25,355 nucleotides of DNA, from positions 1-25,355 of the IMG/VR virus record IMGVR_UViG_2563366824_000002, one strand, 5' to 3'. Source of the stretch: a virus. Lineage: Duplodnaviria; Heunggongvirae; Uroviricota; Caudoviricetes. Below the pieces are notes generated by a model. The model had not been told where the DNA came from, did no database searches, and saw nothing but the letters and a program-made list of their open reading frames with translations. Positions 2,061-19,572 of the stretch are shown in pieces (position 1 is the first letter of the stretch; the number at the start of each line of letters is the position of its first letter). A program made the position numbers and the translations under genes.

Positions 2061-3125
2061 TTAAGTTGTTTCCAGACTTCCTTTGGTAAAAGCTTGTATC
2101 AGTCTGTTTGCTGCTGCTTTCTGCGCTGCCACATTGGCAATAACAGATAGTTTTTCCTGGCTGGCTTTCGTGCAGATCCCCGCCCAGTTATCCATCAGAA
2201 AAAAATCCTCTCTTTCTGCAGAGCTGGTAGTTGCACATAGTTTTTCGATCATAGAAGTTATTTCTGCGATGGAATGATTAACCATCATCTGTTGAACCGC
2301 AAAACCGAAAGCGTTAATCATTACTCCATGGAACTGAATATAATCGCGCTTGTACGTAGCGTGGTGTACACCATGTCGAATTGAGTCAATCTGAGTTAGT
2401 GTAATCCATGCCTCCCAGACAGATTCTATATATCCCATTTCAAGTTGTTGATTGCCGTTCCTAGCGAACTTTGACGTTGCATCAGTGAGTGCCTTGAAAC
2501 TCACCCACATATTACTTTTTAATGGCACTACGTTGTGTTCAAAATCGGTTATATCGGCAAATACAGTATGTTGGGTCAGGAAGGATATCATTCCCTGAGC
2601 AATATCATCCCGGCCGTTATACGCCATATTGATGGTCGCTGATGGCTTAGAAACGTTGTTATTTATGTCCGAAAAGAACTGCTGCCGGGTTTTTAGCGGC
2701 AGATTCATTGTAAGCATCATGGGAACCATGAGCGTTGATGGGGAACTTCGGCAAAATATCTCAATGCCAGCTGCACGATGTTGACCATCAAAAAGTTTTA
2801 TTTCGGCGTCGAGGGGAATTCTGGCTATACCAACATTTGTGTTGCCAAACGGTACAAATTCTATATTCGAATCACAGTTACCTACGAGAGGGGGAATGAT
2901 AAAAGGCTCATTTCTTGAGTCTGCGTTAGTGAGATAATTTAAAAATTTTCGTACTCGATTTGGATTAATTTCTCGCTGAGAGCGTTCCAGTGTATGGCCG
3001 TAATTATCTGAAGCGAGGAAACGAGCCAGCGATCTTCCTGGTATGGTAAGGAAGAGTGTAACAGTACCACCCTGTACACCTTGCGATGCCGGAAATTCGA
3101 ATGAATGATTACCAACCTGACTCAT
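2061..3125 (-). CDS. DGQHR-domain protein (DndB-like, ParB/sulfiredoxin superfamily), standalone, 354 aa
   Basis: Contains the exact motif FDGQHR (…IKLFDGQHRAAGIE…) about 110 aa from the N-terminus, the signature of DndB/DpdB-type DGQHR domains. Strong RBS (AGGAGG) 7 nt upstream of the ATG at 3125. Bracketed by a 150-bp gap to exo on one side and a hairpin terminator on the other. Visibly more AT-rich than the neighbouring exo/bet. Confidence 0.75.
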   Translation of the reverse strand: MSQVGNHSFEFPASQGVQGGTVTLFLTIPGRSLARFLASDNYGHTLERSQREINPNRVRKFLNYLTNADSRNEPFIIPPLVGNCDSNIEFVPFGNTNVGIARIPLDAEIKLFDGQHRAAGIEIFCRSSPSTLMVPMMLTMNLPLKTRQQFFSDINNNVSKPSATINMAYNGRDDIAQGMISFLTQHTVFADITDFEHNVVPLKSNMWVSFKALTDATSKFARNGNQQLEMGYIESVWEAWITLTQIDSIRHGVHHATYKRDYIQFHGVMINAFGFAVQQMMVNHSIAEITSMIEKLCATTSSAEREDFFLMDNWAGICTKASQEKLSVIANVAAQKAAANRLIQAFTKGSLETT

Positions 3126-3957: not shown

Positions 3958-4739
3958 GCTGCCACCTTCTGCTCAGTGGCTTTCTGTTTCAGGAATCCAA
4001 GAGCTTTCACTGCTTCGGCCTGTGTCAGTTCTGACGATGCGCGAATGTCGCGGCGAAATATCTGGGAACAGAGCGGCAATAAGTCGTCATCCCATGTTTT
4101 ATCCAGGGCAATCAGCAGAGTGTTAATCTCCTGCATGGTTTCATCGTTAACCGGAGTGATGTCGCGTTCCGGCTGACGTTCTGCAGTGTATGCGGTATTT
4201 TCGACAATGCGCTCGGCTTCATCCTTGTCATAGATACCAGCAAATCCGAAGGCGAGACGGGCACACTGAATCATGGCTTTATGCCGTAACATCCGTTTGG
4301 GATGCGACTGCCACGGCCCCGTGATTTCTCTGCCTTCGCGGGTTTTGAATGGTTCGCGGCGGCATTCATCCATCCACTCGGTAACGCAGATCGGATGATT
4401 GCGGTCTTTGCGGTAAATCCGGCATGTGCAGGATTCGTTGTCCTGTTCAAAGTCCATGCCGTCAAACTGCTGGTTTTCGTTGATGATGCGGGACCAGCCA
4501 TCAACGCCCACCACCGGAACGATGCCGTTCTGCTTATCGGGGAAGGCGTAAATTTCTTTCGTCCACGGATTAAGGCCGTATTGGTTGGCGACGATCAGCA
4601 ATGCGGTGAACTGCGCATCGCTGGCATCGCCTTTAAATGCTGTCTGGCGAAGAGTGGTGATCAGTTCCTGTGGGTCGACAGAATCCATGCCGACACGTTC
4701 AGCCAGCTTCCCAGCCAGCGTTGCGAGTGCTGTACTCAT
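3954..4739 (-). CDS. bet: Lambda-type single-strand annealing protein Beta (Red-beta, 261 aa)
   Basis: Translation [38 protein letters not shown]… matches lambda Bet essentially throughout. Confidence 0.95.
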
Positions 4740-4744
4740 CCGTT

Positions 4745-5041
4745 TTATACCTCTGAATCAATATCAACCTGGTGGTGAGCAATGGTTTCAACCATGTACC
4801 GGATGTGTTCTGCCATGCGCTCCTGAAACTCAACATCGTCATCAAACGCACGGGTAATGGCTTTTTTGCTGGCCCCGTGGCGTTGCAAATGATCGATGCA
4901 TAGCGATTAAAACAGGTGCTGGGGCAGGCCTTTTTCCATGTCGTCTGCAAGTTCTGCCTCTTTCTCTTCACGGGCGATCTGCTGGTAGTGACGCGCCCAG
5001 CTCTGAGCCTCAAGACGATCCTGAATGTAATAAGCGTTCAT
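4745..5041 (-). pseudogene. gam: gam (RecBCD inhibitor, GamS-length) interrupted by an in-frame TAA
   Basis: Minus-strand reading from the ATG at 5041 gives [44 protein letters not shown], then TAA at 4907..4909, then in frame [15 protein letters not shown]…[10 protein letters not shown] to the stop at 4745..4747. Lambda has GAA (Glu) at this codon; here it is TAA. Both halves are under 60 aa, so the gene is absent from the ORF track. Confidence 0.8.
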
Positions 5042-5179
5042 GGATAAACTCCTGAAATTTTGATGTGCGGATCCAGACAGTGCGTTAACTGCATAGTTGT
5101 TTGAATGAACTCGCTTGATTAATCAAAATGTTGGATCACACTATGTCTTGCTCAAAATCTGATAAATAAGGTGTCTAGA

Positions 5180-5485
5180 ATGCTGATTGATAAGTTAAAG
5201 TCTTCTCCGATGTACCCAACCGCAGAAATGGGTAAGCAGTCGAAAAAGAATCATTGGTATGTAAGGGAAAAGGGGAGTGATCAACCGCAAGACCAGACCT
5301 GGAGAGCTTGGTGGGAATCTCGCTCGCTTGGCAAAGGCCATATCAATTGGAGATCTACATGCGTAGCAGAAAATGTACTCGATCCATTCAATCCGCCATC
5401 TCGGTTTGAGGTTGATTTCAAAGCCCCTGATGGGAGTATCTACAACCTTGAATTTGCTTTGGCTCCACACGGCCCAAACAAGTGA
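5180..5485 (+). CDS. Hypothetical protein (about 101 aa), rightward-oriented in the leftward early operon region
   Basis: ATG at 5180 with AAGG about 9 nt upstream. Product is Trp-rich and charged (MLIDKLKSSPMYPTAEMGKQSKKNHWYVREKG…) with no recognisable family. An alternative minus-strand ORF (5195..5470) covers the same DNA, so the coding strand is ambiguous. Confidence 0.35.
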   Translation: MLIDKLKSSPMYPTAEMGKQSKKNHWYVREKGSDQPQDQTWRAWWESRSLGKGHINWRSTCVAENVLDPFNPPSRFEVDFKAPDGSIYNLEFALAPHGPNK

Positions 5486-5489
5486 GTAG

Positions 5490-5780
5490 TTAGTGGCTCA
5501 GACCACCGCCAGTACCATTCAGGTAAACCTCCACGAGCAAATCTTTTGTGTACGTTCGTTCGATGCCGCGATGCAAGTAAAGCCGACCGCGCAAATTAGC
5601 TGATGCCGTCCAGGTACCATCTTTGTGTTTAACCAGCATACCTGGCCGGACGGCACCGCGATTAACGGTCTGAGTTCCGTAATGTTGATGAACCATAAAA
5701 ACTCCTGCCCGTAAGCTGGGCTGCTGAACATATAGAGACTTCTGCGCGTATTCAGGCGGTGCATGGCCGCCGGTTGTCAT
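5490..5780 (-). CDS. Hypothetical protein (96 aa), first ORF downstream of the putative P_L
   Basis: ATG at 5780 with GAGG about 10 nt upstream. Codon usage looks E. coli-like (CTG, GGT, CGC). It occupies the position taken by N in lambda but has no arginine-rich N-terminal motif. Family not recognised. Confidence 0.35.
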   Translation of the reverse strand: MTTGGHAPPEYAQKSLYVQQPSLRAGVFMVHQHYGTQTVNRGAVRPGMLVKHKDGTWTASANLRGRLYLHRGIERTYTKDLLVEVYLNGTGGGLSH

Positions 5781-5976
5781 AACTAAGCCGCCTCGTTGAA
5801 GCGACTAAGGTATGAAATGTTGAGTTAATTTCAGCTGGTCACACCGACGTTCACGCGTCCGTTTCACCCCTCGCACTCCCCGAAGCCTGCTGAAATTCAA
5901 ACTGTGGATCTAAGCGGTCATCGCAACGGTGAATCAGGTAGTTGCCGTATCGTTGTGTTGTTGCGATGAACTTATT

Positions 5977-6050
5977 TAAAACTATAGTTGTTTTATCGTT
6001 AACAACAAAAGTTGTTTTATTGGTTGTTTTAGATATAACTGGTTGTATTT
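5977..6050. promoter_or_regulatory. Putative O_L operator cluster and P_L
   Basis: Clustered dyad-like repeats built from AACAAC / GTTGTT half-sites (AAAACTATAGTTGTTTT, AACAACAAAAGTTGTTTT, TGGTTGTTTT, ACTGGTTGT). The same half-site family recurs in the cI-cro intergenic region. Confidence 0.5.
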
Positions 6051-6291
6051 AGGATGGATTTATTTTGTGACTTGAATCGCATAGCGATAACTGAAGCGAG
6101 GTTATGGTGGTTTTTTTAACGGTGTGTGTGATGAGGGGAGGGCAAAAGAAAACCCGGCACGGTGACCGGGATTCTTACGCCGTTAGGTAAAGATATTATT
6201 GCGGTGGCTTAATATTACTACCTAGAGCAAAGATAGGAATTAGTTCTTTACTGAATGAGCACAATGCCCAGTTGATAATTTTTAATTGGTA

Positions 6292-6981
6292 CTACCCATG
6301 CTTCCTATATGTCTGCGGCATGCTCCCAATAACCTTACCGAAGATGAACACCCGGTTCATCTCGTCTTTCTCGATCGGGTCCCACGGTGAGTAGCTTTTG
6401 TTATCAGAGATGACCAGCAGCTTATCCTTCATCATTTGCAGGCGCTTTACATGGGCTGTGTCGTCGTACAGAAACGCATAGATACCATCACCGTCGAAAG
6501 ATTTAACTGTGATATCAACGAACAGCAGATCACCTGGTTCGATCGTTCCTGACATGCTGTCACCACGCACGTTAATGATGCGGATATTTTCCGCCTTCCT
6601 ACCATCGAACATGTGACGAGCATCGTCAAACGAGTACTCAACCGAGCGTAGAACTTCTACAAACTCACGGTTGATGACTCCCGGCCCAGCACTGACTTCT
6701 ATATCAAGAACGTCAATCTTGAAGTATTTGGAATGGCTGACAGTTGATTGTATTGGTTGCACTGTACTGTCTGACATATTTCCAACGCCAGAAGATAACC
6801 ATTCTGCGCGCACACCCAAAGCGTTCGCGATCTCCACGATTTTAGTTGTTTGATTAGCTTTCCCTGTTTCGATTTTCTGAATAGCAGCCTGGCTAACCCC
6901 GACCAAATCCCCAAGCGCCTTTTGTGTAAGGCCTCGCGCTAATCTGGCTTCTTTAAGTCTTTCTGAGAGTGTTGTTTTCAT
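6292..6981 (-). CDS. cI: CI-like prophage repressor (N-terminal XRE HTH, C-terminal S24 LexA-like autopeptidase)
   Basis: From MKTTLSERLKEARLARGLTQKALGDLVGVSQAAIQKIETGK (HTH). Ala-Gly cleavage site in EVSAGPG. S24 motifs RGDSMSGTIEPGDLLFVD (Ser) and HVKRL (Lys). The ATG at 6981 sits about 10 bp from the first operator, compatible with a leaderless P_RM-type transcript; the longer ORF-track start at 7047 lies inside the operators and is rejected. Confidence 0.85.
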   Translation of the reverse strand: MKTTLSERLKEARLARGLTQKALGDLVGVSQAAIQKIETGKANQTTKIVEIANALGVRAEWLSSGVGNMSDSTVQPIQSTVSHSKYFKIDVLDIEVSAGPGVINREFVEVLRSVEYSFDDARHMFDGRKAENIRIINVRGDSMSGTIEPGDLLFVDITVKSFDGDGIYAFLYDDTAHVKRLQMMKDKLLVISDNKSYSPWDPIEKDEMNRVFIFGKVIGSMPQTYRKHG

Positions 6982-6987
6982 AGTCCA

Positions 6988-7056
6988 AATGTACAACCAA
7001 GGTTTTATTCCATCAAACGAAAATGGTTGTTGACTAAAAACAACCATAGTTTTAAT
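6988..7056. promoter_or_regulatory. Putative O_R operator cluster with divergent P_RM / P_R
   Basis: GTACAACCAAGGTTTTAT and the inverted repeat ATGGTTGTT-GACTAAA-AACAACCAT (7023..7047) lie between the divergent repressor and Cro-like genes. Confidence 0.55.
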
Positions 7057-7085
7057 CTTGATTCAAATTAACCACGGAGGTTGTT

Positions 7086-7316
7086 ATGAACCCAGCTATC
7101 AAAACAGCGATCAGTATCGTTGGTTCACAAAAGAAACTGGGCGCTGCTTGCAAAGTTTCACAGCAGGCCGTCTATAAGTGGCTTCACAACAAAGCAAAGG
7201 TATCCCCTGAACATGTCGGCAGCATTGTTACGGCTACTGGTGGAGTAGTGAAGGCATACCAGATTCGCCCGGATCTTCCGAAGTTGTTTCCACACACCGA
7301 AAAGAACGCAGCTTAA
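7086..7316 (+). CDS. cro: Cro-like HTH regulator (YdaS-like, 76 aa)
   Basis: Divergent from cI, with GGAGG 6 nt upstream. Small HTH protein (…KKLGAACKVSQQAVYKWLHNKAKVSPEH…) resembling the Cro/YdaS family. Confidence 0.75.
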   Translation: MNPAIKTAISIVGSQKKLGAACKVSQQAVYKWLHNKAKVSPEHVGSIVTATGGVVKAYQIRPDLPKLFPHTEKNAA

Positions 7317-9878: not shown

Positions 9879-12800
9879 ATGACCACTGTGAATAAAAAGT
9901 TAAAAAAAACTGCATCTGGCGCGATTACATGGTCAGTAATTGTTACCCAGATATTATCTCCAGTTTCTCTTTCTTTGATTCCGGCAAACAGTTTTGCATC
10001 GTCTGATAATAAAGATGTTACGCAAATTTATGCTAGCGATGAGCGTGCAAATAAAGTGGCCTCATTTGCAGTAAGTGCAGGTCAGAGTCTGGCGAATAAT
10101 AATGCAAGTAGTTTTGCTGTAAATACTTTATCAACTCAGGCGACAAAAGAGGTCGTCGATTGGTTGCAACAATATGGCAATGCGCGCATCAAGCTTAATG
10201 TCGATGATTCTTTTTCCTTGAAGGATTCATCATTCGACTTTTTATATCCATGGCTGGATACTCAGGATTATGTGCTATTCAGTCAAACATCACTACATCG
10301 TACTGATGACCGTAATCAGACCAATATTGGTTTGGGGATTCGTCATTTCACTCCTGATAATGCAATGTTGGGTGCGAATGTTTTCTACGATTATGATTTA
10401 AGTCGCAGCCACTCTCGCGCAGGTTTTGGGGTTGAGTACTGGAGAGATTATTTCAGGCTTGGTGTAAATACCTATTTTGGTTTATCTGACTGGAAGGACA
10501 GTCGGGATATTGATGATTATCTGGAAAGACCCGCAAATGGCTGGGATTTTTCTGCTGAAGGATGGCTACCTGCTTATCCGCAATTAGGGGCATCTATTCA
10601 GTTTGAAAAATATTATGGTAAAAATGTCGGATTATTTGGAAGCGATAATCTGCAGGAAAACCCTTACGCAGTTACTGGGGGAATTTCTTATACACCAGTT
10701 CCTCTGATTAAGTTTTCTGCACAGCATAAGCAAGGACAGAGCAACGTTCACGATACAACCTTTGGTGTTGAGTTTAATTACCGCCCAGGCGTTTCCCTTG
10801 CTGAACAGCTTAGCAGTGACAATGTTGCAGTTATGCGAGAAGTCCAGAACCGGCGTTATGATTTTGTTGAACGAAATAACAACATTGTTCTGGAGTACAA
10901 GAAGAAGCATGCACTGAAAATCAGCTTACCAGAGTCTGTTCAGGGGGATGGCGAATCAATCATCCCTGTAACACTGACAATCAACAATGCCAGTGGTGGT
11001 ATCAAGTCTGTACAGTGGAATGATAGTGTATTCACTGCGGCTGGCGGTAAGATCAGTGGAAATGGCACATCATGGCAGGTCACTTTACCGGCTTATAAAA
11101 GCGAAGGTGTAAATTCGTGGAATGTTGGAGCCACGGTCCAGGATAATAGAGGCAACGTTTCCAACTATGCGGTGATGAATATTAGCGTTATTAATAGTGG
11201 TGTCTCGACAGCGGATTCTTCTTTTACGTTGGATGGTGATTCGTCTCCGACGATCTCTGCTGATGGTCAATCCACTCATCCAATAGTATTAAGCCTGAAA
11301 GACAGTAACGGTAAGGCATTAACCGGACTGGCTGATGACATTGAAATGTCAGTGGAATTTACTGCGGATAGCAATAGTGCTCGACAGCGTGAAACGGTAA
11401 CTGCCCCGTCATTAGGCGCGGTAGAGGAAATCTCTGCTGGTGTATATCGCTCTGTTCTGACTGCTGGTTCGCAGGCTGGTACGGTACGTGTAACTGCAAA
11501 AGTAATGGATAAAACATTTACTCTCAGTATTAAGCAAACAGCAGCAACAGAACCTGATTCTGAGGTCAGTGCTGTTTTAACCGCTGCACCAGCAGAACAG
11601 GTAGTTGGTTACAATATCAATCTACAACTGGCAGTGAAGGATTCACAAGGAAATGCAATCACTGGTGATAACACTCTGAGCTTTTATGCTCTTAACCAGG
11701 CAGAAGGAGTCGAGTTTGGGGCTGTAACGGAAAAAGACGGTGTCTATAGCGCGACAGTAACTTCAAAACGAGCTGGTAAGATTCGGATCGGTGTTAAATC
11801 GGGTAGTCACAATTTCTCAGGTATTGAGAAAGAAATCTCCTTTATTGAAGATCGAACACAGTTCGCATTCTCTCGTATTGAAGCCAGTAAAAATAATGCA
11901 TTGGCTGACGGCAAACAACAGAATACGGTGACTGTAAGCCTTGCAGATCGTTTCGGCAATGTTGTGCCCGGTTATGCTGTTACGCTGTCCTTACCTGCGG
12001 GGGTAACTCAAGTTGGTGGTGAACATGCTGTGTCAACTGACGAAAACGGTAATGCTGTTTTTGCGTTAATAAGCTCCACTCCGGGTTCTTACGTGATTAA
12101 AGCTCATGCTGGTTCTCAGATGTCTACTGAGTTAACAGTAACCTTTGCATCAAATATGATCGGAGCTTCACTGTCACTGACGCCTGGAAACAGTAGCTTA
12201 ATTTCCAATATTCCTGCTAATGGTAAGGATGCTGCGGTATTGAATGTGCAACTGACAAATACGAATGCGTCGGTCAATGGACAGAAGATTCAGCTCATCA
12301 CCTCATCTGAAGGATTGTCTGTACCGACAAATATCGTGACTGATTCAACAGGGCATGTTTCCGTACCACTTACAACGGTGAGAGCTGGTGAGTATACGGT
12401 GGCTGCACGAGTGACTGACGGTTCCCATAGTGTGGAGTCTGGCAGCGTTAAGTTAACTTTTGTACCAGATGCTGCTTCCGCAGAACTTACTATGAGTACA
12501 TCAAAACAGCAGATTGTGGCCGATGGTAGTGAAAGTGCAACAGTGGACATTCAGTTGGTTGATGCCAATAACAATGCGTTTACAGGCGATGTGGATTTAA
12601 CGGTTACACCATCGACGGGAGCATCATTGACCAGTAGTAAACTGCAGTTGGATGCTCATGGACAGGCAACAACGCAGTTCACAGCATCGAAATCAGGCCA
12701 GTACACAATTCAGGCTGAGTATGTTCTAGATGGGAAACGTATAACCGCAAGCAAAAATATTGATGCCGTGACGGATGTGAAGGAGGCTGTGTTGGAGATC

Positions 12801-13430
12801 ACATCATCTGCATCTTCGGCTGTAGTGAGCGATACCAACAATCTGATATTTACGTTACTGTTGAAAAGTACGTCAGGCGAAGTATTAAGTGGTCGAGTAT
12901 TGAATATCAAGGCATCTGGGCCGTCCAAATATGGTGCGTTGGTGGTTGATAAAACCACTGTAACGACTGATGAGTATGGTCTGGCTACGGTAAGCGTACA
13001 TGGTCGAACGGCTGGTTCGTATAAATTAACGGCGACCTTAGATGAACTTGGCAGTGATGTTAGTGAGGTGAAGTCATTCTCTCTGTATGCTGATGAGGCA
13101 AATGGAGTATTGACACTGCATAAAGATGGAGGCTATGACACAGATGATGGTACTCCAGTGGGGGTTTATGCCCGATTTGTTGACCATTTCGGCAATCCGT
13201 TATCTGGTACGGTTGAGTTTTCTGCTGGTAGTGAAGATAGTCCAAACTCTCAACGGGTTAAAATGGAGCCTGCTACAGTAACGTTACACTGGACAGGTAA
13301 TGCAGCCTCGGAGTTCAGCACCTATGAAAGCGGTTATCACTGGATTAAGGCCAAAATAACGAACAGCAAAAATACATATGAGAAAACAATAAGGACTTAT
13401 GTTGTAAAGCTCCCTGAAAAGGATAGTTAA
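9879..13430 (+). CDS. Invasin/intimin-family inverse autotransporter adhesin (1183 aa) with a long array of Ig-like (Big) repeats
   Basis: N-terminal signal peptide. Beta-domain strongly resembles invasin (…EGWLPAYPQLGASIQFEKYYGKNVGLFGSDNLQENPYAVTGGISYTPVPLIKFSAQHKQGQSNVHDTTFGVEFNYRPG…RRYDFVERNNNIVLEYKKK). Followed by about 800 aa of repeated roughly 100-aa modules. Preceded by a 240-bp AT-rich intergenic region. Confidence 0.85.
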   Translation: MTTVNKKLKKTASGAITWSVIVTQILSPVSLSLIPANSFASSDNKDVTQIYASDERANKVASFAVSAGQSLANNNASSFAVNTLSTQATKEVVDWLQQYGNARIKLNVDDSFSLKDSSFDFLYPWLDTQDYVLFSQTSLHRTDDRNQTNIGLGIRHFTPDNAMLGANVFYDYDLSRSHSRAGFGVEYWRDYFRLGVNTYFGLSDWKDSRDIDDYLERPANGWDFSAEGWLPAYPQLGASIQFEKYYGKNVGLFGSDNLQENPYAVTGGISYTPVPLIKFSAQHKQGQSNVHDTTFGVEFNYRPGVSLAEQLSSDNVAVMREVQNRRYDFVERNNNIVLEYKKKHALKISLPESVQGDGESIIPVTLTINNASGGIKSVQWNDSVFTAAGGKISGNGTSWQVTLPAYKSEGVNSWNVGATVQDNRGNVSNYAVMNISVINSGVSTADSSFTLDGDSSPTISADGQSTHPIVLSLKDSNGKALTGLADDIEMSVEFTADSNSARQRETVTAPSLGAVEEISAGVYRSVLTAGSQAGTVRVTAKVMDKTFTLSIKQTAATEPDSEVSAVLTAAPAEQVVGYNINLQLAVKDSQGNAITGDNTLSFYALNQAEGVEFGAVTEKDGVYSATVTSKRAGKIRIGVKSGSHNFSGIEKEISFIEDRTQFAFSRIEASKNNALADGKQQNTVTVSLADRFGNVVPGYAVTLSLPAGVTQVGGEHAVSTDENGNAVFALISSTPGSYVIKAHAGSQMSTELTVTFASNMIGASLSLTPGNSSLISNIPANGKDAAVLNVQLTNTNASVNGQKIQLITSSEGLSVPTNIVTDSTGHVSVPLTTVRAGEYTVAARVTDGSHSVESGSVKLTFVPDAASAELTMSTSKQQIVADGSESATVDIQLVDANNNAFTGDVDLTVTPSTGASLTSSKLQLDAHGQATTQFTASKSGQYTIQAEYVLDGKRITASKNIDAVTDVKEAVLEITSSASSAVVSDTNNLIFTLLLKSTSGEVLSGRVLNIKASGPSKYGALVVDKTTVTTDEYGLATVSVHGRTAGSYKLTATLDELGSDVSEVKSFSLYADEANGVLTLHKDGGYDTDDGTPVGVYARFVDHFGNPLSGTVEFSAGSEDSPNSQRVKMEPATVTLHWTGNAASEFSTYESGYHWIKAKITNSKNTYEKTIRTYVVKLPEKDS

Positions 13431-15791: not shown

Positions 15792-16874
15792 TTAGAACTG
15801 ATACACCAGACCTACAGCGACGATGTCGTCGGTATCAATACCAGCTGTTTTGGTAAACTTACTATCGTCAATTAAGTTGATTTTGTAATCAACAAAAGTG
15901 GACATGTTTTTATTAAAGTAGTAAGTAGCACCGACATCGACATACTTGACTAAGTCTCGGTCACCATGAACACCAAGGTCTTTACCTTTTGACTGAAGGT
16001 AAGCAACAGATGGTCGCAGACCGAAGTCAAACTGATATTGTGCTACTGCTTCAAAGTTTTGTGCTTTGTTTGCAATATGGTTATTACCAAAAACGGTCAT
16101 ATTCTGAGTTTCAGAATATGTGGTAGCCAGATAGATATTGTTCGCATCATATTTCAGGCCTGCAGCCCATACTTCCGCATTTTTGCCGGAGGCATTGAAT
16201 TTGCTCTTACCATAGGCGACCTGACCGTCAGTGCGATCTGATTTAGCATAGGTTGCACCCACGCCGAATCCTTCATACTCATAAGTAGTGGAGAAACCGA
16301 AACCATCACCATTGGCTTCAGTTACGTCAGTGCGGTCATTTTTACCCTGATACTGAGCAGCAAAGTTCAGGCCATCGACCAGACCAAAGAAGTCGTTGTT
16401 ACGATAGGTTGCAACACCAGTGGTGCGACCAGTCATGAACACATCTGTTTGGGTCCAGGTATCGCCACCGAATTCTGGCAGAACGTCAGTCCACGCACCG
16501 ATGTCGTATGCTACACCGTAGTTACGGCCGTAATCGATTGAGCCGTAGTCACCGAATTTCAGGCCTGCAAATGCAAGACGGGTTTTGTCTTTGGAGGAAC
16601 CTTGAGATTCAGCGCGGTTGCCTTTGAATTCATATTCCCACTGACCGAAACCAGTCAGTTGATCGTTGATTTGGGTTTCACCTTTGAAGCCAAGACGGGC
16701 ATAAGTAGTATCACCATCATCTGCATCGTTAGAGGAAAAGTAGTGCTTGGCATTAACTTTCCCGTACAGATCCAGCTTGTTACTGTCTTTATTATAAATT
16801 TCAGCTGCCTGAGCAGACATCGCCATCAGTACTGATGCAGCTACAGCAGAAATTGCCACTGTTAATTTTTTCAT
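15792..16874 (-). CDS. nmpC: OmpC-family general porin (NmpC-like, 360 aa), apparently intact
   Basis: Signal peptide [23 protein letters not shown], porin beta-barrel sequence and the C-terminal …VAVGLVYQF typical of OmpC/OmpF/NmpC porins. Encoded antisense between Q and the holin. Confidence 0.9.

Positions 16875-17462: not shown

Positions 17463-19572
<2,110 letters not shown>

Follow-up and report, generated by a model that had tools for sequence, protein, structure and literature searches.

We analysed a window of 25,355 nucleotides (nt), the whole stretch from position 1 to 25,355 of IMG/VR virus record IMGVR_UViG_2563366824_000002, which is a defective lambdoid prophage at the DLP12 position of Escherichia coli, and followed up an original prediction that had singled out small convergent open reading frames (ORFs) between its gam gene and its leftward early promoter, P_L. 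Three ORFs are present in this interval as predicted: a rightward one at 5180–5485 (+), a leftward one of 96 amino acids (aa) at 5490–5780 (−), and a 91-aa one that mirrors the rightward ORF at 5195–5470 (−). The stop codons of the convergent pair are indeed separated by exactly 4 nt (GTAG, 5486–5489). The pair had been called unrecognised; this description fits the rightward ORF, a real gene of an orphan family that is hereafter called X, whereas the leftward ORF is recognisable by homology as a known lambdoid/Rac early gene, kil. The coordinates of the features are collected in Table 1.

Table 1 Features of the X/kil interval and its surroundings (positions in the window).
Feature	Position	Strand	Basis or remark
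gam pseudogene	4745–5041	−	left neighbour of the X cassette
Inserted cassette (moron) with X, 432 bp	5058–5489		without counterpart in close relatives
Candidate sigma-70 promoter of X	5115–5144	+	inferred from conserved block
Shine-Dalgarno-like AAGGTG	5168–5173	+	6 nt upstream of the X ATG; read from the sequence
X, 101 aa, WP_000904075.1 ('hypothetical protein'), phrog_16212	5180–5485	+	homologues and selection
Mirrored 91-aa ORF antisense to X	5195–5470	−	artefact of the plus-strand gene
kil, 68-aa KilR-family protein (assigned by homology), WP_000233584.1	5490–5696	−	phrog_294, Rac KilR alignment, PGAP start
In-frame upstream extension, 28 codons	5697–5780	−	part of the 96-aa ORF; most likely leader
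O_L/P_L region, probable	~5975–6050	−	operator-like repeats and promoter-like hexamers
S24-type cI repressor	6292–7047	−	right of the X/kil interval

X matched phrog_16212, a family of unknown function, end to end (E 1e-69) from the ATG at 5180, and a Met start is common to 17 homologues of 62–99% identity; the list of ORFs gives X as a GTG-extended version of 104 aa from 5171, and the protein has 101 aa from the ATG. Among the 17 homologues 34 residues are invariant, including five Trp, one His and one Cys, and the family contains an in-frame indel of three residues (three codons). Comparison of four diverged X genes revealed 54–57 substitutions at codon position 3 versus 9–26 at positions 1 and 2. 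Synonymous sites are saturated (proportion of synonymous differences, pS, 0.46–1.0; proportion of nonsynonymous differences, pN, 0.05–0.27), and the ratio of nonsynonymous to synonymous substitution rates (dN/dS) was 0.07–0.10 where measurable. X is a real plus-strand gene under strong purifying selection.

The mirrored ORF on the minus strand was rejected as a gene. Its frame, open in the window, contains 4–5 stops in homologues, all reverse frames of X carry at least three stops in each of three diverged homologues, and no family match was obtained for the mirrored ORF in Pfam, phrog, NCBIfam or PADLOC. The original prediction had left the coding strand ambiguous; because the substitutions fall mainly on the third positions of X and the mirror frame is interrupted by stops, the strand is settled as plus and the mirrored ORF is an artefact.

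The same measurements bear on the possibility that X is a decaying or selfish, functionless remnant hitch-hiking beside kil. The window prophage is defective (gam pseudogene, insertion sequence (IS) elements, truncated late region), and no member of the family has a known function; but the low dN/dS with saturated synonymous sites, together with a frame, start codon and Shine-Dalgarno (SD) motif preserved across at least nine genera and 63 loci, makes this possibility highly implausible. X is still intact in the defective prophage despite the pseudogene gam next door.

We then compared the leftward ORF with known families. It matched phrog_294 ('Kil protein for bacterial septation inhibition') with an E value of 1.4e-36, and BLASTP against KilR of the K-12 Rac prophage gave 34% identity over 65 aa (E 2e-12), in an alignment that runs from Met1 to Met1 provided that the leftward ORF begins at ATG 5696. 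A database search returned 155 relatives, nearly all with PF27398 (KilR) and most of 67–68 aa, which are named 'cell division inhibitor protein' by their sources; homologues at 98% identity have a precomputed PF27398 assignment, and membership was read from these homologues' assignments, the local Pfam copy being without that model. Against NCBIfam NF008465 (FtsZ inhibitor protein) the ORF scored 59.6 bits (E 2e-16); because this falls short of the trusted cutoff of 92, its sequence points to a diverged KilR subfamily, a relative but not an NF008465-level member. Size and location agree with the family, at 68 aa (family about 67–73 aa) and between P_L/O_L and gam-bet-exo, and in the window transcription from P_L would meet no recognisable gene before kil. 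These homologies make the leftward ORF an ordinary KilR-family gene for a phage inhibitor of cell division. The original prediction had allowed that homology searches might identify both ORFs as known lambdoid early genes, and they did so for one of the two, the leftward ORF. It had also stated that none of the ORFs resembles N, Kil, CIII, Ral or SieB. With respect to the lambda proteins this is borne out, as neither X nor the leftward ORF showed similarity to lambda Kil (47 aa), CIII, Ea10, Ral, SieB, N or RexAB; it does not extend to KilR, to whose family the leftward ORF is assigned.

The predicted leftward gene is real and under purifying selection (between the window and PhiR34_1, 17 of 22 substitutions in 5493–5696 lie on third codon positions), and its predicted length of 96 aa is most likely too long. 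An AGGAG at 5702–5706 stands 5 nt upstream of ATG 5696, Rac KilR and most homologues begin at the equivalent Met, and PGAP also starts the gene at 5696, with the allele annotated as 'hypothetical protein'. These features indicate that the true start is most likely ATG 5696, giving 68 aa rather than 96 aa, and that the in-frame extension upstream of it is most likely the noncoding 5' leader of kil; the 28 codons hold a single substitution among relatives, too few for a codon-position test. The kil product would be made from the P_L transcript after induction and, by homology to Rac KilR, may inhibit FtsZ (and MreB) and so stop the host from dividing. The Rac protein is toxic and inhibits both FtsZ and MreB (PMC12482147). 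With the leftward ORF reassigned as kil, a false lead is gone and the annotation is corrected to 68 aa.

We found that X lies on a discrete insert. The phages PhiR34_1 and PhiR47_2 align with the window at 4700–5057 and 5525–6400 with 93–98% identity, and 5058–5524 of the window is not alignable to them, with ~94 bp there instead. Because the 3' end of kil is homologous though diverged, the true insert is 5058–5489. These observations support the original prediction in treating the interval as a variable cargo slot. The cassette has a GC content of 43.8%, versus 52.4% for exo-bet-gam; X is thus distinguished as a moron would be, as an insert between conserved genes that is missing in near-identical phages and has a base composition unlike that of the neighbouring phage genes.

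The cassette was found in 28 of 5426 complete E. coli genomes, always with at least 99.4% identity, and X was encoded in none of 50,697 deposited phage genomes. X occurs in Escherichia, Shigella, Klebsiella, Enterobacter, Citrobacter, Lelliottia, Cronobacter, Raoultella and Huaxiibacter; a scan of species-representative genomes added two further loci only. Within E. coli, the block 5042–5696 comprising X and kil is 100% identical among prophages whose exo and bet differ by 2.3–3.2% and whose immunity regions differ. At the divergence of the flanks ~15–20 mismatches would be expected and none was observed, which indicates recent spread of the X and kil block by recombination.

X also appears to carry expression signals of its own. 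Purine-rich SD-like motifs stand at the position equivalent to the AAGGTG of the window in most diverged X loci, with only a weak GAGA in Enterobacter-type loci. About 60 nt upstream of X, 8 of 10 diverged loci have kept the block CTTGATTAAnCA with CAGAAT 16 nt after it, and the intergenic DNA around it varies among loci. From this block we infer a candidate sigma-70 promoter for X, whose −35 would be TTGATT (5115–5120), retained in the window, and whose −10 would be a weak CACACT or CACTAT (5137–5144). The −35-like hexamer is overlapped by a perfect 12-bp palindrome, TTGATTAATCAA (5115–5126, +), which is unique in the window, is largely conserved across genera, and could be a putative regulator binding site.

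In six loci (L004, L006, L009, L010, L015 and L016, which are Cronobacter, Enterobacter and metagenome relatives) a GC-rich hairpin stands ~70–100 nt upstream of X, before the promoter-like block; that of L009, with its T-run on the minus strand, resembles a terminator for leftward transcription. This hairpin is not in the E. coli cassette of the window. An Rfam search of 4700–7200 returned only a chance miRNA match.

On the far side of kil, operator-like repeats are common to the P_L side (5975–6050) and the P_R side (6990–7060). A 19-nt operator-like sequence at 5976–5994 recurs, inverted and with 95% identity, at 7037–7055 beside cro/cI; related direct repeats of 22 nt occupy 5975–5996 and 5999–6020, and a probable P_L can be read on the minus strand as TTGTTG-16-TATAGT. 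Because the operator-like 19-mer recurs beside cro/cI, we place the probable leftward operator and promoter (O_L/P_L) at this site, and leftward early transcription would thus reach the X/kil interval from the right. Leftward transcripts from P_L would probably cover kil and then run across X in antisense. In the window, no gene for an N-like antiterminator was found between P_L and kil, and the P_L leader (5781–5960) folded no better than shuffled sequence.

The rightward gene is, as originally predicted, uncharacterised and opposed to P_L transcription. This opposition, together with its own signals, points to expression of X in the repressed prophage. From its 432-bp low-GC insert between kil and gam, with its own SD and promoter-like element directed against P_L, X would be made while the prophage is repressed, and would be switched off or overridden by strong antisense P_L transcription after induction. 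An antisense position within a lytic operon and a promoter of its own typically mark a gene as a prophage accessory locus that is expressed in lysogeny (PMC7067206).

We next examined the architecture of 63 X loci gathered from genomes, metagenomes and IMG/VR. X is rightward inside a leftward early operon in all 63. It is convergent with kilR at the exact 4-nt gap in 50 of them, in several genera, and the gap is kept even where KilR is only 34–40% identical. In ten others an N-like antiterminator whose N-terminus is rich in arginine is the closest leftward partner, 0, 12, 71–73 or 447–665 nt away (0–12 nt in four loci), and the remaining three have neither partner. The N-associated X proteins are the most divergent (55–63% identity). 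The left neighbour of X varies as well, being a 131-aa protein in some loci and Gam or GamL in others. Rac, PhiR34_1 and PhiR47_2 have KilR and no X, and clustering yielded 155 KilR clusters versus 19 for X. Pairwise divergences of X and KilR were uncorrelated (r = −0.02; 15 pairs from six loci, a small sample); between the window and the Cronobacter locus L004, for example, X is 80% and KilR 40% identical. Because 13 of the 63 X loci are without KilR, KilR is common without X, and the two do not diverge together, X and kil are linked and do not form an obligate module, so that the two-gene module of the original prediction is not upheld.

The same loci allow a closer link to be weighed, in which X and kil form a functional pair and X keeps the toxic kil silent in the lysogen. 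The X protein might bind or antagonise KilR in the manner of an antitoxin, or a terminator-less X transcript running antisense across kil might cause decay of kil mRNA or block leaky leftward transcription. The exact 4-nt junction in 50 of the 63 loci speaks for such a pair, as does the travel of X and kil as one identical block within E. coli. Furthermore, there is no terminator or stable hairpin between the two genes (the fold of the junction, 5440–5720, was no better than shuffled, z = +0.76), and a rightward transcript of X would either read on into kil in antisense or be stopped by Rho. The toxicity of KilR is high, and host control of kilR expression has a precedent in Rac (PMC12482147; PMC5793797). 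The X loci without a KilR neighbour, however, include the most divergent and presumably oldest X lineages, KilR is common without X, the lack of correlation argues against a co-evolving protein interface, and a role by antisense alone would not call for strong protein-level constraint on X. The frozen junction resembles the outcome of one ancestral insertion that recombination within kil has since spread, which explains it equally well. On balance we consider a functional pair improbable.

The X protein itself is mildly basic (isoelectric point 8.8), Trp-rich and hydrophilic (grand average of hydropathy −0.94), and its maximum 19-residue hydropathy of 0.19 indicates a soluble protein without a hydrophobic segment. 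No match to X was found in Pfam, NCBIfam or PADLOC, and Pfam was also empty for all 17 family members. Among 1.84 billion representative proteins, a profile hidden Markov model search recovered the X family, frameshifted fragments of it, one repeat protein and nothing else; a profile search of PDB sequences gave a best E value of 0.14, fold comparison gave no informative match, and every database source calls X 'hypothetical'. By all these comparisons X constitutes an orphan family.

The sole match outside the family was P0021, a 1110-aa metagenomic repeat protein with ten copies of SWSLWW..ILGTSGHIIW.S. This motif resembles the most conserved stretch of X, QSWRAWWESRSLGKGHIKWRST, with a short SW..WW...GHI.W in common; we judged the likeness probably coincidental and rejected P0021 as a relative.

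A small, basic, Trp-rich protein with an invariant His and Cys, conserved strongly across genera and encoded behind a palindrome that may be a regulator site, would also suit a lytic-cycle or regulatory phage gene, namely a small nucleic-acid-binding regulator or an anti-defence protein transcribed from another rightward promoter. X is dispensable, however, being absent from the functional phages PhiR34_1 and PhiR47_2 and from all the deposited phage genomes searched; the one strong early promoter on that side is directed against it, which would hold down the expression of X during lytic growth; and it showed no homology to known anti-defence or regulatory families. We regard a lytic or regulatory role as unlikely.

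Taken together, the reading that we favour with moderate confidence is that kil is an ordinary early gene, and that X is a moron, an autonomous accessory gene which the lysogen expresses and which P_L transcription counteracts once the prophage is induced. The role of X is most likely a lysogen-expressed function that benefits the host or the prophage. Exclusion of superinfecting phages, by analogy with the gene that occupies this place elsewhere, is the leading candidate for that role, although a tentative one. Of similarly low probability is a more novel reading, in which X would be a hitherto unrecognised single-protein exclusion or anti-phage determinant whose fold is absent from the PDB and BFVD, lying in the sieB slot of enterobacterial lambdoid prophages and silenced in its own phage by antisense transcription from P_L. 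More rarely, X might instead be a dedicated KilR antagonist, and the two would then make up a new type of convergent toxin/anti-toxin-like pair.

Several observations weigh against this reading. The −10 of the window is weak and a consensus promoter scan called no site for X; no terminator-like site was found downstream of X on the plus strand; and the frozen junction with kilR in 50 of the 63 loci, treated here as mere linkage, could point to a functional tie. As for exclusion, X is without similarity to SieB and without a membrane segment, and neither PADLOC nor fold comparison gave an informative match, so that an exclusion role would be an argument from position.

X is a clean experimental candidate, being small, strongly constrained, horizontally mobile and present in at least nine enterobacterial genera, with no relatives by sequence or structure and in the very position that an exclusion gene takes in lambda, P22 and Rac. 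Should X exclude phages or modulate the division block, it would represent a new single-gene function in lambdoid early-left cargo; otherwise it is one more conserved hypothetical moron.

Across the window, the gene order from the left is intD, a DGQHR-domain gene, exo, bet, gam and then the X/kil interval. Right of cI lie a cro-like gene, a YdaT-like gene, replication genes O and P, an inverse autotransporter and ybcN-ninE-rusA-quuD, followed after quuD by a porin, an IS3-disrupted lysis region, tail-fibre remnants and appY. The immunity region (S24 repressor, cro-like gene, YdaT-like gene) is Rac-like, and E. coli AST217 is 100% identical to the window over 4900–6300. The gam reading frame is split by a TAA at 4907–4909, in place of a Glu codon of lambda Gam, and is marked 'internal stop' by PGAP; gam is intact in other E. 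coli prophages with X.

Just downstream of cI, an intrinsic-terminator-like hairpin, CCCGGTCACCGTGCCGGG, followed by a T-run (6153–6170, −), presumably ends the P_RM/cI transcript ahead of O_L. The slot between P_L and cI (6171–6291), the rexAB position in lambda, is empty in the window; in close relatives it holds varied cargo, namely the GevA/GevT toxin–antitoxin in PhiR47_2, a 287-aa protein in UMB200201_11, proteins of 147 and 87 aa in SW07099, and a 310-aa protein with a DUF6932 protein in JNE23-001. This slot is the stronger cargo hotspot of these phages. Literature searches on GevA/GevT and on the protein accession returned nothing usable.

In the early-left operon, a DGQHR-domain (DndB-like) gene at 2061–3125 (−) lies between exo/DUF1317 and a TraR-like gene, and relatives such as the Cronobacter locus L004 have DndB and MT-A70 methyltransferase genes at the equivalent place; the gene is possibly part of a DNA-modification or anti-restriction module. 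Further right, an inverse-autotransporter (intimin/invasin-like) gene follows replication gene P (9879–13430, +), an OmpC-like porin gene follows quuD (15792–16874, −), an IS3-family element is inserted directly after the holin gene (17852–19572, +), and the late region is cut down to tail-fibre fragments ahead of appY.

Compared with known systems, kil is close to Rac KilR in being a leftward gene of similar size (68 versus 73 aa) that holds the equivalent place in the leftward early operon of a Rac-like immunity region. Toxicity and inhibition of FtsZ and MreB are known for the Rac protein, and would apply to the window allele by analogy.

X may be likened to sieB of lambda and Rac, both of which are rightward genes. 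The original prediction had described the lambda genes of this interval as all leftward, which overlooks sieB: in lambda (NC_001416) it lies on the plus strand at 34482–35036, abutting N with 0 nt to the N stop, and in K-12 Rac it lies between racR and kilR. X shares with them a rightward orientation in a leftward P_L operon and a convergent, nearly touching end with the preceding early gene, a likeness that is a positional analogy only. SieB is a membrane protein of 184 aa in lambda and 162 aa in Rac, whereas X, at 101 aa, is smaller and predicted to be soluble; BLASTP of X gave an E value of 0.3 against Rac SieB and no hit at E ≤ 10 against lambda SieB. A lambda- or Rac-type sieB was found neither in the window nor within 3–5 kb of X in any locus, and two control phages without X are likewise without sieB, so this absence is weak evidence.

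A toxin–antitoxin system of type II or type I is suggested by a small toxic protein, KilR, adjoining a small gene with an antisense transcript, by analogy. X and kil are, however, convergent rather than arranged as an operon, neither gene requires the other, the two proteins do not co-diverge, and no antitoxin-like DNA-binding domain was detected.

X also resembles prophage morons such as lambda rexAB, bor and lom, and STMMW_20121 of ST64B. X shares with these its occurrence as a discrete, lower-GC, polymorphic insert between conserved genes and, following the concept described in PMC7067206, its placement antisense to a lytic operon with its own translation signals and a promoter-like element. 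For X, promoter activity and lysogenic expression would follow from these signals, and no flanking terminator was found. Classic morons have both a promoter and a terminator. Within this framework kil is of an already known kind, and X is a new, uncharacterised member of the prophage morons.

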